From NCBI GenBank assembly GCA_963849325.1, contig CAWKHF010000012.1, positions 864,001-928,000 of the forward strand: a stretch of 64,000 nt of DNA, read 5' to 3'. The translations under genes and the position numbers were made by a program. The notes under the pieces are model-generated. The model had not been told where the DNA came from, did not search any database, and saw nothing but the letters and a program-made list of their open reading frames with translations. Source of the stretch: an uncultured Planctomycetota bacterium (GTDB taxonomy: Bacteria; Planctomycetota; Planctomycetia; Gemmatales; Gemmataceae). This document shows, piece by piece, positions 13,724-18,668 of the stretch. The stretch's first letter is position 1; each line of letters begins with the position of its first letter.

Positions 13724-15228
13724 GAATGGCGTTCGGTTAAGCGTAGCCTCTTTCGCTGCTTGAACTTCTGACGATCTTGGAAAGGCGGCAGCCTCCTGCC
13801 ATGATGGAGTTGTCCAGACCTCATCATCTCAGGAGGCCGCCATGCTTAGTATGTCGCAAGCCCTCGAACGCATCAAGGGTGCTACCGCCCAATGGATCGA
13901 TGCCCCCCTCATCCATTCCCTCGCACGAGCGCTCCGTCTCGGCGAACATCAGCGTCGGCTGACTCCCCTGGTCACCACCCACTTGTTCATCCGCCAAATC
14001 CTCGAAGGGAACACCTCGGTCTCCGAACTCCGCCGCCTCGCCAAGCTTTCCTTCGCAGACTCGTCCTACTGCGAGGCCCGACAACGCCTGCCCGTGCCCT
14101 TCTTCCAACGACTGGGCGTCGCCGTCCTCGACCGCTGCCGCTCCAGCGACAACGACCCACGCGCCTTGTGGCATGGTCATCGCGTCTTTTTCCTCGATGG
14201 TTCCAGTTTCTCCATGCCGGACACGCCCGACTTGCATGCCGCCTTCGGTCAGAGTGGCCAGCAGGCCCAAGGCTGCGGCTTCCCCACGGCCCACCTGCTG
14301 GTGCAGTTTCATGCCTACACCGGCTATCTGATCAACGTCATGCCGGGACCGTTACGGACGCACGACCTGGCCGACCTGACCTGGACCCACCGCGGACTGC
14401 GGGCTGGCGACGTGGTGGCCGGCGATCGCGCTTTCTGCTCCTATGCTCACCTGGCGATGCGACACCAACGAGGCGTTTTCAGCCTCTTTCGTGCCCATCA
14501 GCGTCTTATCATCTCCTTCAAGCCGCGGCGGAAGCACGTCGCGCCGAACCGTCAGCCCCGCAAGGCAGAAGCGGGCTTGCCCCACTCGCGCTGGCTGCGT
14601 CGGCTGGGCCGCGACGATCAACTCGTCGAGTACGTTAAGCCAGCCGAGTGTCCGGCCTGGATGGACAGCCAGGAGTATGAATCCTTGCCGTCGTCGCTGG
14701 TGGTCCGTGAGGTGCGTGTGCCGATCCGGACGCCGACTTGCCGGGTGCGGGAGTTGACCCTGGTGACAACGCTGTTGGATCGACGGCGTTATCCGCCGGA
14801 GGTGTTGGCTCGGCTGTACGAGAAGCGTTGGGGCGTGGAAGTCAATCTGCGTCACCTGAAACAGACCTTGCGCATGGACGTGCTGCGTTGTGAGACGTGG
14901 CAAGGTGTGTGGAAGGAACTGTTGGTCTTCGTGCTGGTGTATAATCTGGTGCGTCGGGTGATGGTGGAGGCGGCGCGACAGCAAGAGGTGGAACCAGAAC
15001 GTATTAGCTTCGCGGATGCGTGGCGTTGGTTGCGGGAAGCGCGGCATGGCGAAGAATTGCCGCGGCTGCAGGTAGTACCGTGTCGTCCCGGTCGCGTGGA
15101 ACCGCGGGTGAAGAAACGTCGGGCCAAACCCTACGACTTGATGAACCAACCACGAGCCGCGCTGCGCGAGAGATTGTTGCATCAAACGTCACCACCACAA
15201 GAAGATGCGGCTTAACCGAACGCCATTC
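13724..15228 (+). mobile_element. IS4-family insertion sequence, 1505 bp, 19-bp terminal IRs, 11-bp TSD
   Basis: IRL gaatggcgttcggttaagc (13724-13742), IRR gcttaaccgaacgccattc (15210-15228); TSD gttcctgacac at 13713-13723 and 15229-15239. Confidence 0.95.
13842..15215 (+). CDS. IS4-family DDE transposase
   Basis: FLDGS, GDRAF, Y(2)R(3)E(6)K signature YEKRWGVEVNLRHLK; intact 457 aa. Confidence 0.95.
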   Translation: MLSMSQALERIKGATAQWIDAPLIHSLARALRLGEHQRRLTPLVTTHLFIRQILEGNTSVSELRRLAKLSFADSSYCEARQRLPVPFFQRLGVAVLDRCRSSDNDPRALWHGHRVFFLDGSSFSMPDTPDLHAAFGQSGQQAQGCGFPTAHLLVQFHAYTGYLINVMPGPLRTHDLADLTWTHRGLRAGDVVAGDRAFCSYAHLAMRHQRGVFSLFRAHQRLIISFKPRRKHVAPNRQPRKAEAGLPHSRWLRRLGRDDQLVEYVKPAECPAWMDSQEYESLPSSLVVREVRVPIRTPTCRVRELTLVTTLLDRRRYPPEVLARLYEKRWGVEVNLRHLKQTLRMDVLRCETWQGVWKELLVFVLVYNLVRRVMVEAARQQEVEPERISFADAWRWLREARHGEELPRLQVVPCRPGRVEPRVKKRRAKPYDLMNQPRAALRERLLHQTSPPQEDAA

Positions 15229-15259: not shown

Positions 15260-15858
15260 CTACCCCCCTACGATCAGCGACAGGATGCCGACCAGCTTGG
15301 GCAGTTGGCGGACGTGATACTCCTGCTGGTCGAGAGCCACCGCCGACCCCACCAGCCGCAGGAACCGCCACACCGACCCGGATGTAACGGCCCCGTAGAC
15401 CTCGCTCCCCGGCTGCCCCTCCCGTTCGTTGAACAGCCGCGCTCCGACCATCGCCGCCACACATTGCCCAAGCCCCGACTTGAGGTTCTCGTTCTTCGCC
15501 TCCACGATGGCGGCGACCGGGCTCCGCAGGAACTGTTGCTCCGGCGATCGGGACAGGATGAAGTCGCAATACCCCGCTAGCCCTTGGGACGCATCGACCG
15601 TGAAGTCGATCCCGGAGAAAACGCTGAACCGGTGTCCGAGCTGAGCCCGGAGGGCGGCCAGGAGCGGGGCGATCACCAACTCGGAACGGGCCTTCTCGGT
15701 ATTGATGGCCAGGGCGAGCGGGACGAACTCCGGCAGCAGGCGCGGAGCAGCGGCCCCGGCTCGACTTCGGGCGCGTCGCCGAACAGGTCGGGCACGTCCG
15801 TGAGGGTGAGGCCGAACCGGTCGATCACCTCGCGCAAGGTGAAGTCGCTGTATGCCAC
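15260..15858 (-). CDS. Putative PD-(D/E)XK-fold protein; integron cassette 2 ORF (frameshift ~15740)
   Basis: GTG start with AGGAGG RBS; MAYSDFTL...GYCDFIL...IVEAKNE...GLGQCVAAM...YGAVTSGSVWRFL; D...ExK pattern. Confidence 0.7.
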
Positions 15859-15881
15859 GCGCCCTCCTACACGCCTCTTTC

Positions 15882-15970
15882 GCCGAACACCCAGATCAGC
15901 AGCCAGTTGGCCAGGACAGATGTTGAAGCTTGGAAAGCCAGAATGGCCGCCCGGTCTGCTGCAGCGCCTG
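15882..15970 (-). other. Integron attC site, main part (R'' box displaced to 17804-17810 by the IS110 insertion)
   Basis: Reconstructed bottom strand: GCCGAAC-CAGGC-GCTGCAGC...GCTGATC-TGGGT-GTTCGGC; canonical 7-5-8...7-5-7 spacing, 96 bp, two extrahelical bases. Confidence 0.85.
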
Positions 15971-16056
15971 GATACTCATGAAGGCTCTTGAAGCACACTT
16001 GAAGGAGACAGCACTCAGCCGCTGTCTCCTTCACCTGCTAACAACGAGAGGTCTTC

Positions 16057-17106
16057 ATGCGCTACTTCCAACCTCCACCCGACACCCGATTCTATGCCGG
16101 CGTCGATCTCCACGCCAGATCCCTCTTCCTCGTCGTCCTCGACCACACCGGACAGATTCGCTACGCACGCAATCTCCCCGCCGCACCCCAGCCCTTCCGC
16201 AAAGCCATCACACCTTTCCGCGATGGACTCGTCGTCGGCTGCGAGTGCATGCACTGCTGGTACTGGCTGGCCGACGCCTGCCGCGACGACAACATCCCCT
16301 TCCTGCTCGGACACGCCTGGGCAATGAAAGCCGTCCACGGCAGCAAGACCAAGTGCGACCGTAAAGACGCCGAGGCCATCGCCCACCTGCTCAAGGGCGG
16401 CAACTTCCCGCTCGCCTACGCCTACCCCAAAGAACGACGTGGACTCCGCGACCTGCTCCGCGCACGCCTCCGCCTGGTCCGCCAACGCGCCGAACTCTAC
16501 GGCCACGTCCACACCGCACGACGACAGCTCAACTTGCCGCCCATCTCCAACGATGTCAAATACAAGTCCAAGCGTGCCAGCGTCCTGGCCGACATCGACG
16601 ACGACTGCGTCCGTCGCCGCGTCGAGGCCGACCTGTCGCTGCTGGAGCCGCTCGATACCACCATCCGACGACTGGAGAAGGACATCGAGGTCGCCGCACG
16701 ACAGCACTATGCCACCGAGATGGCCGTGCTGCAATCGACACCCGGCGTCGGCCTCGTCATCGCCCTGACCATCCTTTTGGAGATCGACACCCTCGAACGC
16801 TTCGACACCCGCCAGCAGTTCTGCTCCTATGCCCGGCTATGCGGCGCCCGCCAGGAGTCGGCCGGCAAGAAGGTGGGCACGGGCAACGCCAAGCAGGGCA
16901 ACGCCTGGCTGAAGTGGGCCTTCTCCGAGGCGGCCGTACTCAGCGCCCAGAAGGACGAACGCATCGGCCAGTACCTGGACAAGCTGTCGGGCCGTCTGGG
17001 CCAAGCCAAAGCCTTGTCGGCATTGGCCCACAAGCTGGGACGAGCCTTCTACCACATGCTCCACAAAAAGGAGGTCTTTCAGATCGACCAATTCCTGAGA
17101 CACTGA
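16057..17106 (+). CDS. IS110-family DEDD recombinase/transposase
   Basis: AGVDLH, CECM, KCDRKDA (DEDD RuvC-like); coiled coil; PGVG and ESAGK serine motif in the C-terminal domain; intact 349 aa. Confidence 0.95.
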   Translation: MRYFQPPPDTRFYAGVDLHARSLFLVVLDHTGQIRYARNLPAAPQPFRKAITPFRDGLVVGCECMHCWYWLADACRDDNIPFLLGHAWAMKAVHGSKTKCDRKDAEAIAHLLKGGNFPLAYAYPKERRGLRDLLRARLRLVRQRAELYGHVHTARRQLNLPPISNDVKYKSKRASVLADIDDDCVRRRVEADLSLLEPLDTTIRRLEKDIEVAARQHYATEMAVLQSTPGVGLVIALTILLEIDTLERFDTRQQFCSYARLCGARQESAGKKVGTGNAKQGNAWLKWAFSEAAVLSAQKDERIGQYLDKLSGRLGQAKALSALAHKLGRAFYHMLHKKEVFQIDQFLRH

Positions 17107-17780
17107 GAAGCCAGGGCGCGGCCGGCGAGCCGAAGCCGAACGGGAGCCGCTACGGGCTAACCCTTACGACGACCCCCACCATCCAGGGAGCATCGACTCC
17201 GCAGTGGGGGTCCGGGACCGCCCAGGCATCCAGCCGCTTTGATGGGACGCCGGCCGCGTCCGTATTATTTCGACCGCGGTGGTCGCAAAAACAGGCCGCG
17301 ATCCGCCGGTGGGTCGGGGGACCAACGGGATCAGCGTAACGCTGTCCCAAGGAATCGGGCTTGGCTTTGAGCCATCCCACGTCCTCCCGACCCCCGCCAG
17401 ACCGCGACCCGTGATCGCAAGGAGCCATTCGCCCGGACGATCCGCCCCAGTCGCCAGCCTGGCCGAACGGGACGCTCCTTTGGGGGAGTGAGCCAGTCGC
17501 TTTTTGAATGGCGGCGAAGCTGGGAACGTATGAATATCGGGACCGGCCAGGGCAGGTTCCCTGGCACAGCCGCCTGGTCCTTCGGGTCTGGGCCGCCGGA
17601 GTCCGCATGAGTGTTGGGTGCGGTTCGCCTCGGCCGTGGGCCGAAGGTGTTCCGCGTCCGTCGCTGATATCCAAGCCGGATCGCCGAGGACGATTGCTCA
17701 CTGCCGCTGCAACCTTGTTCGGTCATCCTTCCGGCAAGAAAAACGCCGGAGATACCCGTTCCCGTGGAAAATATTTTTAC
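17107..17780 (+). ncRNA. Candidate bridge/seek RNA region of the IS110 element (boundaries unknown)
   Basis: ~700 nt inside the element with no credible ORF; hairpins (e.g. ccagggcaggttccctgg 17547-17564); short matches to target and element ends. Confidence 0.55.
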
Positions 17781-17803
17781 TTGACACCAAGAGCCTTATG
17801 AGT
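17781..17803 (+). promoter_or_regulatory. Outward-facing -35 box; forms TTGACA-N17-GATACT promoter at the circle junction
   Basis: ttgaca at 17781-17786, exactly 17 nt to the element end at 17803; left end begins gatact (15971-15976); AT-rich tract just upstream. Confidence 0.75.
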
Positions 17804-17810
17804 GTTCGGC
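17804..17810 (-). other. attC R'' box (GCCGAAC on bottom strand)
   Basis: Lies ~30 nt after the stop codon of the 17840..18349 ORF; complementary to the box at 15882-15888. Confidence 0.8.
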
Positions 17811-17839
17811 CGCATTGTCTGCTGCAATCCTTGAGCGAA

Positions 17840-18349
17840 TTACCACCAACACCTGGCCTGCCCGACGCCTGACTTCGGGATCAGCCCAATCCAATCGGGA
17901 TTCAAGCGCCGTCCGTAGCGCCCGGAGGAGTGAACTCCCGCCACACGGGCGTAGCGGGCGAACACCCGCCGACTGCCTCCTTCAATACTCCGCAAAATAC
18001 ATTGCGTAAGCCTCTCGCGCTGTCCTGCGTTCAGGTGGCAACGCTTTAATCGATGCAGGATTTTTTCTTTGATGTATCCCGATCGAAAAAACCAGGGATC
18101 TACTTCGAGGAAGCAGATGGCATCTTCCACTGCTTCGGGTTCTTGCTGTCCCAACTCCTGGAGTCTCTTGGCAAGGCCGCCGGGGAAAGCTAAGTGATCG
18201 TAGAGACCCAGAAACGAATCGCGGGCAGAAGCGTAATTCTCCGAGCGATTTTGCACGGCTTCATTAAAGCGCCGATTCAGTGCGGCCAGGCGCGTCGTAC
18301 TCTCGACAATTTGCCGATGGCGAACGGTTATGCTGCGATTCTTGGACAT
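17840..18349 (-). CDS. Hypothetical protein; integron cassette 1 ORF
   Basis: 169-aa ORF, visibly more AT-rich than flanks, bounded by GTTCGGC 5 nt before the ATG and by attC after the stop; FLEVDPWFFRSGYIKE segment. Confidence 0.7.
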   Translation of the reverse strand: MSKNRSITVRHRQIVESTTRLAALNRRFNEAVQNRSENYASARDSFLGLYDHLAFPGGLAKRLQELGQQEPEAVEDAICFLEVDPWFFRSGYIKEKILHRLKRCHLNAGQRERLTQCILRSIEGGSRRVFARYARVAGVHSSGRYGRRLNPDWIGLIPKSGVGQARCWW

Positions 18350-18354
18350 ACGTT

Positions 18355-18373
18355 GCCGAACATCTGATTATGT
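18355..18373 (-). other. attI-like simple site
   Basis: Bottom strand ACATAAT-CAGAT-GTTCGGC (L box, 5-nt spacer, GTT core); no matching attC arm found upstream. Confidence 0.55.
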
Positions 18374-18381
18374 CGCGCACG

Positions 18382-18457
18382 TGCGCGATCTAGCAAGGCT
18401 GCTGCGCAACCTAGCAAGGCTGCTGCGCGACCTAGCAAGGCGCTGCGCGATCTAGCA
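18382..18457. repeat. Four tandem ~21-bp direct repeats
   Basis: tgcgcgatctagcaaggctgc / tgcgcaacctagcaaggctgc / tgcgcgacctagcaaggcgc / tgcgcgatctagca. Confidence 0.9.
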
Positions 18458-18668
18458 CGACTCTCCTTATCTATCCGCAACGTTGCGCAACCGTCAAGGA
18501 AAAACGACTCCCCTTTGAGATTTTTCAGCCTCGCCACCGCCACCGTGGCCAGGGAGTCGGTCTTGACGGCCCTGCGGCGCCTGCATTACTATTCGCCGGC
18601 CTCTCGGTGCCTGCGTGCCGTCGATACCGCACTCCCACCTCCGATACTGCTCCAGAAAGGACGCCGCC

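Follow-up and report, generated by a model that had tools for sequence, protein, structure and literature searches.

We found that the non-coding right end of an active IS1111-type insertion sequence in the window (the whole 64,000-nt stretch of planctomycete DNA analyzed here) holds a conserved structure with covarying helices, and comparison with related elements supports its assignment to the bridge/seek type of guide RNA. Probably, a long and structured guide RNA is encoded by positions 17107-17805 in the same orientation as the transposase; one of its loops (module 1) would be the working target loop and a second, look-alike loop (module 2) a retained paralog serving mainly as scaffold. 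Conservation, helix covariation, and the covariation of both the right-end guide and the module 1 3′ strand with DNA form the basis of this reading; transcription, processing, protein binding, and catalysis would be expected by analogy. To our knowledge, no guide RNAs other than bridge/seek RNAs specify both recombination partners, and all described examples that we know of have one target loop and one donor loop within 150-190 nt. The predicted RNA most likely belongs to this known kind and departs from the described examples by its length, its duplicated loop, an inserted hairpin and, relative to the ISKpn4 group, the point of insertion.

The element occupies ~15971-17804 within an attC-like repeat (Table 1) and is an active IS1111-type member of the IS110 family, with 17107-17805 as its non-coding right end. 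Its transposase is of the DEDD (RuvC-like) kind with a PF02371 C-terminal domain and ends in a stop codon at 17104-17106 (all coordinates were re-checked on the sequence); the inverted repeats are subterminal, with 5-7 nt and 2-4 nt beyond them, and the longer non-coding side is the right one (~700 nt, compared with 85 nt on the left). Insertion is specific for site and orientation, all left flanks belonging to one repeat type with empty sites in the same genome. Comparison of filled and empty sites revealed no target duplication and a crossover core of 2 nt, which is GG at 71 of 72 left junctions in the planctomycete clade and either TG or GG at right junctions among relatives. Once a circle forms, GATACT in the left end would be placed as a −10 box, paired at 17-nt spacing with the TTGACA of the joined right end. 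A gene for an IS4-type DDE transposase (PF01609) is located 750 nt upstream on the plus strand (13842-15215), and the locus is therefore a mobile-element cluster. Beside the target repeat, two overlapping minus-strand open reading frames (ORFs; 15260-15679 and 15673-15858) resemble one gene split by a frameshift, and the longer piece had no Pfam match.

Table 1. Features of the element, its target site, and the predicted guide RNA (window positions)
Feature	Position	Strand	Basis or remark
Left part of attC-like target repeat	15882-15969	+	Inverse core GCCGAAC at 15882-15888; left flank ends ...GCAGCGCCT at 15969
Core dinucleotide GG, left junction	15970-15971	+	Both bases ambiguous in comparison of filled and empty sites
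Left end	15972-16056	+	Begins ATACTCAT; invariant among relatives examined
Left subterminal inverted repeat	15977-15990	+	Within left end
DEDD transposase/recombinase	16057-17106	+	349 aa; Pfam PF01548 (44.8 bits) and PF02371 (61.5 bits), both above cut-offs
Module 1, upstream stem-closed loop	17113-17263	+	RNAalifold and pair counts
Module 1 closing helix	17115-27 / 17248-61	+	Encloses internal loop and variable distal part
Module 1 5′ strand with GCCGAAC	17135-41	+	Complementary to target core
Module 1 variable distal part	~17149-17225	+	Skipped in two related metatranscriptome contigs
Module 1 3′ strand, GCCGCTT-TG	17233-41	+	Tracks the element's own left flank
Domain B, long hairpin (~170 nt)	17276-17445	+	Arms 17294-17322 / 17381-17409; 27 pairs, 6 changed on both sides
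Module 2, second stem-closed loop	17446-17524	+	Directly upstream of donor-binding part
Module 2 helix P1	17446-59 / 17510-24	+	8/13 pairs changed on both sides
Module 2 GCCGAAC	17462-68	+	5′ strand of loop
Module 2 hairpin P2	17474-90	+	RNAalifold structure
Module 2 3′ strand, GTCGCTTTTTGAATGG	17496-17511	+	No independent tracking of left flank
Donor-binding multiloop	17525-17627	+	Single strand 17525-17538, then hairpins P3, P4, P5
Left-end guide (putative), ATGAATATC	17530-38	+	In single strand of multiloop
Hairpin P3	17545-65	+	Donor multiloop
Hairpin P4	17569-96	+	Contains CGCCTGGT
Hairpin P5	17598-17626	+	Loop bears right-end guide ATGAGTGTTGG, 17607-17
Less conserved tail	17628-17780	+	Internal pseudo-target 17703-17722, where the tandem repeat of the second full copy (L002) begins
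Right end	17781-17802	+	TTGACA (−35-like) at 17781-86; holds subterminal inverted repeat
Right subterminal inverted repeat	17788-17802	+	Right end closes ...TTATGAG at 17802, then TG
Core TG (17803-04) and right target flank TTCGGCC	17803-17811	+	Comparison of filled and empty sites

About 150 related elements were compared overall. A protein-guided scan of one genome per species returned 367 relatives, from which 79 loci were kept (7 from planctomycetes at 68-93% protein identity, the others at 45-51% and nearly all from Gammaproteobacteria), and a metagenome scan contributed 80 loci. The whole ~700-nt non-coding region could be aligned in 8 planctomycete relatives at 75-88% identity, and a covariance model of 17440-17627 found matches in 12 of 151 genomes of the family. 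The gammaproteobacterial relatives are elements of ~1.59 kb (1.6 kb) whose non-coding region of ~470 nt has its parts in the same order, and module 1, module 2, and the donor-binding part occurred in every full-length clade member that we examined. Domain B is confined to the subclade of the window, being absent from locus L104, from a more distant family (G090), and from the gammaproteobacterial relatives; the ~700 nt therefore correspond to the 470-nt layout of the clade plus domain B and a longer tail. An Rfam scan of 15500-18500 at E values up to 10 returned only a chance sX7 match outside the region.

Structural alignment of homologous right ends, which the earlier note had named as a check of its guide RNA proposal, did uncover conserved and covarying helices. 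Across 17440-17627, RNAalifold predicted 53 pairs, of which 38 change on both sides, compared with 17.5 in shuffled alignments (0 of 500 reached the observed count) and 12-15 in slid controls; in the same 20 distinct sequences 92.8% of alignment cells were paired, against 77.8% in shuffles, figures that come from an alignment fitted to the model and thus favoring the structure. The upstream part (17100-17445), aligned for 8 sequences with plain MAFFT, gave a smaller excess in the same direction, with 94.0% of cells paired compared with 89.4% in shuffles, and 18 of 90 pairs changing on both sides compared with 11.5 in shuffles (0/500) and 0-4 in slid controls. The two alignment folds disagree on the partners of 17441-17444, and that small helix is uncertain.

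In addition to the structure, several short matches in 17107-17780 had been read in the earlier note as guide loops, and we re-found each at the position given: CGCCTGGT at 17571-17578 (with a second occurrence inside the transposase gene, 16471-16478), the 11-nt direct repeat GCCGAACGGGA at 17135-17145 and 17462-17472, ATGAGTG at 17607-17613 and again at the right end (17798-17804), and TATGAATATC at 17529-17538. The accompanying caution that matches so short could be chance was well placed. Among 1000 dinucleotide shuffles of 17107-17780, an exact match of at least 8 nt across the empty-target junction arose in 216, a 9-nt match to the right junction in 54, and matches of at least 7 nt to the right end and the left end in 179 and 228, respectively; only the 11-nt repeat (0/1000) lay beyond chance. 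Given that the matches are at chance level within the window, the case for guides rests on comparison with relatives.

The strongest result of that comparison concerns the right end, where the junction has the sequence ATGAG-TG-TTCGG and the P5 loop carries ATGAG-TG-TTGG. Of 29 planctomycete loci, 27 have a guide whose 5 nt ahead of the core are identical to the right end of the same element, whether of type ATGAG, ATGAC, ATGCG, or ATGTG; the remaining two are off by one base. More distant families match guide and right end in other sequences (TAAGG, AGAGC, TGAGC, AATCC, and ATCCG, each in both places), as do the gammaproteobacterial relatives, with ATAGG in 13/13 and ATATG in 35/35 (48 of 51 rows, the other 3 having been mis-picked by the search pattern). 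Judged by this covariation of sequences, the proposed match at 17607-17617, including the ATGAGTG first pointed out, is a real donor guide that changes with the right end. The first core base of the guide is nearly always T, that of right junctions T or G, and that of left junctions G, a pattern consistent with a TG core in the donor being brought against a GG core in the target.

The match to the left end (17530-17538) is probably a guide as well, though here the evidence divides. The consensus ATGAGTATC is fully complementary to G plus ATACTCAT, with one mismatch in the copy of the window, and one compensating change is found in the G090 family, whose left end ATAATCAT goes with the guide ATGATTTTC; against this, the segment is almost invariant in the gammaproteobacterial relatives despite their varying left ends. 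The proposal that CGCCTGGT guides the element to its target did not survive: it forms the 5′ arm of P4, in which 8 of 8 pairs change on both sides, so that it covaries with its partner arm and not with the target, and relatives that share the left flank AGCGCCT carry different P4 arms. Its identity with the empty target is chance.

The one repeat beyond chance had been taken to mark tandem guide modules, and two look-alike target-loop modules are indeed what we found. Both GCCGAAC copies lie in the 5′ strands of stem-closed loops and are complementary to the conserved core of the site; elements of the planctomycete clade conserve the motif as CC-N-AAC, and the gammaproteobacterial relatives, whose sites read GTTAG, have CTAAC. 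Within the window, alignment of the two 5′ strands with each other scored above shuffles (a score reached by 1 of 500), and so did that of the two 3′ strands (15 of 500). An nhmmer search of module 1 with a module 2 HMM detected the similarity weakly, with 8 matches at E < 10, none of them below 0.01, in 56 sequences, compared with 0 in 280 shuffles. Of 53 distinct non-coding regions from the gammaproteobacterial relatives, 37 showed the motif order T-B-T-B of the two-module layout, which none of 1060 shuffles did.

The two modules differ in how their 3′ strands relate to the site. In the gammaproteobacterial relatives, the module 1 3′ strand matched the element's own left flank at 3.00 of 6 variable positions compared with 1.96 in permutations (0/5000), with a signal at the exact register only (z = 5.6), and the planctomycete loci pointed the same way (3.76 of 7 compared with 3.52 permuted; 10/3000). 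The corresponding values for module 2 were 2.03 compared with 1.52 in the gammaproteobacterial relatives and 2.62 compared with 2.65 in the planctomycete loci. At positions where the 3′ strands differ, the flank equaled module 1 in 50 of 117 (38.3 permuted; 10/5000) and module 2 in 22 of 117 (25.8 permuted; 4449/5000). Related elements are not independent and these permutation tests overstate significance, the direction nonetheless being the same in both clades. Taken together, the comparisons suggest that in the gammaproteobacterial relatives it is only in module 1 that the 3′ strand follows the left flank. For the GCCGAAC strands, no covariation with the right flank beyond constant bases was detected in the gammaproteobacterial relatives, and their putative core-complementary role rests on conserved complementarity. 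Covariation of guide segments with the target, which the earlier note had named as a check, gave a divided picture: a signal for the module 1 3′ strand against the left flank, and none seen for the core-complementary strands. The note's further suggestion that the duplicated motif may serve variable attC sites would have the two copies cover different core variants, and this is unsupported: in 16 of the 27 planctomycete relatives with a readable right flank, neither copy matches the site at its central base, and the second copy sits in the loop whose 3′ strand does not track the site. GAATGG (17506-11) was also considered as a left-target guide and rejected, as the variable segment precedes TTG in the gammaproteobacterial relatives and the bases that follow pair in the closing helix.

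Two alternatives assign module 2 a larger part. In the first, modules 1 and 2 would both bind target-type DNA (attC variants or the arms of a palindrome) while the multiloop holds the donor, giving a bridge RNA with three loops. We regard this as a possibility to be held tentatively, short of likely: the core-complementary motif and its architecture are kept in both modules across two phyla, the 6 nt before the module 2 core are highly variable between conserved motifs, as in a programmable segment, and module 2 lies directly upstream of the donor-binding part. However, the left flank follows module 1 at the positions that distinguish the two 3′ strands, module 2 does no better than permutation in the planctomycete loci, and the variable 6-mer had no partner in the flanks or ends (best z ~3.5) or in the RNA itself (z ~4.3, at low absolute pairing). 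An evolutionary extension of the same idea, to which we likewise lend limited credence, is that the clade spanning Planctomycetota and Gammaproteobacteria uses such an RNA with two separately evolving target-type loops; the upstream loop would have taken over left-flank recognition after duplication, the donor-adjacent loop would bind a second DNA segment (the other attC-like arm or alternative sites), and the planctomycete halves, split by the 170-nt hairpin, may become separate target and donor RNAs. The second alternative holds that the 187-nt unit of module 2 and donor multiloop (17441-17627) is the sole functional bridge RNA; the upstream 330 nt would take no part in guiding and would be either a leader or a duplication undergoing decay. 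In size and layout, this unit agrees with the published forms, the long ones of 148-172 nt and the short one of 82 nt (review PMC13604230), and a deletion derivative on contig C5 of the same genome retains only 17502-17810 and the left end. We consider this alternative rather improbable nevertheless: every full-length clade member that we examined, even at 45-50% protein identity, retains module 1, and of the two 3′ strands the one that follows the left flank belongs to module 1.

Contigs 85-95% similar to the region were present in four of four metatranscriptome runs, one of them (691 nt) spanning 17120-17810, though these contigs stem from relatives, may hold DNA, and cannot show RNA ends; gaps in their depth (e.g., 17636-17731 in run X3) were not interpretable. 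At 17245-17271, the module 1 closing helix is followed by a U-rich run, resembling a terminator, and itself overlaps a promoter-like site that is not conserved outside the subclade. A split into two RNAs through the terminator-like hairpin (17245-61) and the promoter-like site (17239-68) was considered and rejected, both being single consensus matches that are not conserved in relatives. The plus strand is favored by family precedent, by G-U counts, by consensus energy, and by P5. That the helices instead act as DNA, or that the RNA is a minus-strand antisense regulator of the element and not a sense guide RNA, strikes us as very unlikely: the minus strand does fold better as a single sequence (z = −3.33 compared with −1.37), and the strand tests favor plus weakly (alignment fold −68.95 compared with −66.47 kcal/mol), but P5, the hairpin of the right-end guide, forms in the plus-strand consensus only, G-U pairs exceed A-C pairs (79 to 16 and 26 to 18, in structures themselves derived on the plus strand), and all family members that have been tested make the RNA in the sense orientation of the transposase gene (PMC11187229).

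The absence of a credible ORF between the transposase stop codon and the right inverted repeat, as first reported, agrees with our results: three long open frames in 17107-17780 had no Pfam match, indel runs relative to 8 relatives were mostly not multiples of 3 (e.g., 16 of 18 in locus L019), and substitutions relative to the same 8 were spread evenly over codon positions. That the region could be a decayed passenger gene, which would have overturned the guide RNA proposal, we give practically no weight, as it lacks these signatures of coding and conserves helices instead, with module 1 starting 7 nt past the stop codon in the window, even though a passenger ORF between transposase gene and module 1 does exist in one relative, of the G090 family. 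That ORF (L126:1528-1836, on contig C5 of G090) encodes 102 aa with a CHC2 zinc finger (PF01807, 40.3 bits).

Returning to the reading with module 1 as the working target loop, we propose that the guide RNA would be made by read-through of the transposase transcript, with a promoter formed when the ends of the element join. In module 1, the 5′ strand GCCGAAC would pair with the 7-nt attC-like core and the 3′ strand GCCGCTT-TG would copy the left flank and core, while the donor multiloop (17525-17627) would read both ends of the element, the left one through a complementary strand and the right one, with the core, through a hairpin loop that copies it. By analogy with IS621 and ISEc11, the RNA-bound recombinase would then align the circular element with its target through base pairing, and strands would be exchanged across the 2-nt core, which is TG in the guides and mostly GG in targets.

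The target itself is plausibly an attC site, and we use attC-like as a fair label for its sequence. Inverse cores GCCGAAC and GTTCGGC lie ~90 nt apart in the repeat, and uninterrupted copies elsewhere in the genome read ...GCAGCGnnT-GG-TTCGGC. At up to 3 mismatches, the repeat had 22 matches in the genome, in small clusters over 9 contigs, and the reversed sequence used as control had 1. The fourth position of the core is occupied by C and not by a purine, and an attC-like hairpin formed in one of four single-strand folds of repeat copies (z = −1.7). No array beside an integron integrase was found for these repeats in the assembly, which is 85% complete and in which the best match to the integrase model TIGR02249 scored 85 bits against a cut-off of 265. 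Flanking ORFs on both sides lie on the minus strand, so that the element is antisense to them, at the 5′ core end of the site. Three genomes of the same genus yielded no orthologous empty site.

Other traces of the element are scattered through the same genome. A second full copy (L002, contig C7) is 99% identical and inserted in the same orientation into the same repeat family, and a further copy, truncated at its 5′ end, is 85% identical. The deletion derivative (L004/L008; contig C5, ~954490-954908) measures ~420 nt and consists of the left end fused to window positions 17502-17810; it has lost 5 nt of P5, and its guide for the right end, AGGAGT, disagrees with the right end that it carries, AGAAGG. 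Three solo right ends of ~55 nt, TTGACA included (L009, L010, and L013; contigs C12 and C7), are each followed by a target core and have no transposase gene nearby. In the second full copy (L002:3353-3455, contig C7), the last 97 nt are tandemly repeated, starting exactly at the internal pseudo-target (window 17703-17722); tandem right ends likewise occur in the G090 family, and short ones in L023 and two gammaproteobacterial loci (listed loci L117, L023, L034, and L057). The tandem right ends suggest that elements insert into pseudo-targets within each other's tails.

Among known systems, the closest are the IS1111 elements, whose guide RNA is encoded beyond the 3′ end of the transposase gene and carries its match to the top strand 5′ of its match to the bottom strand (PMC11187229); the earlier note had stated this downstream position correctly, and the structured region of the window is placed likewise. 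As described by Siddiquee et al. 2024 (PMC11187229) and Durrant et al. 2024 (PMC11208160), the seekRNA or bridge RNA systems of ISEc11, ISPa11, and ISKpn4 share with our element a DEDD recombinase, subterminal inverted repeats, and a downstream non-coding region, together with a stem-closed loop with the top-strand match 5′, a donor multiloop (the donor-binding bases being often in a multiloop; PMC11208160), and a promoter expected at the circle junction. In contrast to the IS1111 long forms of 148-172 nt given in the review PMC13604230, the structured RNA predicted here measures ~520 nt, and it differs from IS1111 seekRNAs in having two look-alike target-type loops instead of one and an extra 170-nt hairpin. 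The second loop, this lineage-specific hairpin, and the long tail together account for the extra length in the window. Titles and abstracts on IS1111 or IS110 that mention seekRNA, bridge RNA, or attC contained no two-loop bridge RNA of this kind, which may be described elsewhere; the supplementary legends of PMC11187229 give no sequence or coordinates for the ISKpn4 RNA, and the figures they accompany may bear on the two-loop claim.

With IS621, the predicted RNA shares two-strand recognition of target and donor and a 2-nt core common to the guides, and the base after the TG core in the guides matches the right flank, as in a handshake guide (PMC13626964). IS621 differs in that its RNA lies upstream of the gene, its loops are simple internal loops, and its CT core is the same in donor and target, whereas here the first core base is T in the guide and G in most targets. 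According to PMC3001079, IS1111-attC elements (ISPa21, ISPst6, and ISKpn4) also insert near one attC-type core and antisense to cassette genes. According to PMC13604230, that group inserts at GAA*CG, 6 nt from GTTAG, a feature that we did not find in the present clade, whose crossover is at the core itself (T-KG-TTCGG). ISPpu9/Ssr9 (PMC12288879) is similarly an IS110-family system with an RNA gene downstream of the transposase, solo copies of its end module, and several circle forms; the solo 55-nt right ends and tandem right-end repeats seen here match its extra end copies, though ISPpu9 differs in targeting REP sequences.

Bridge/seek RNAs are being engineered for genome insertion. This comparison defines a second IS1111 lineage at attC-like sites, with an insertion position that differs from that of the ISKpn4 group. 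If the target loop is indeed duplicated, and the copy not adjacent to the donor-binding part is the one that tracks sites, the guide RNA scaffold would tolerate both long insertions and loop duplication, these elements would provide a natural system in which to model split or multi-target guides, and the system would allow a direct test of how insertion elements cope with variable targets such as attC.
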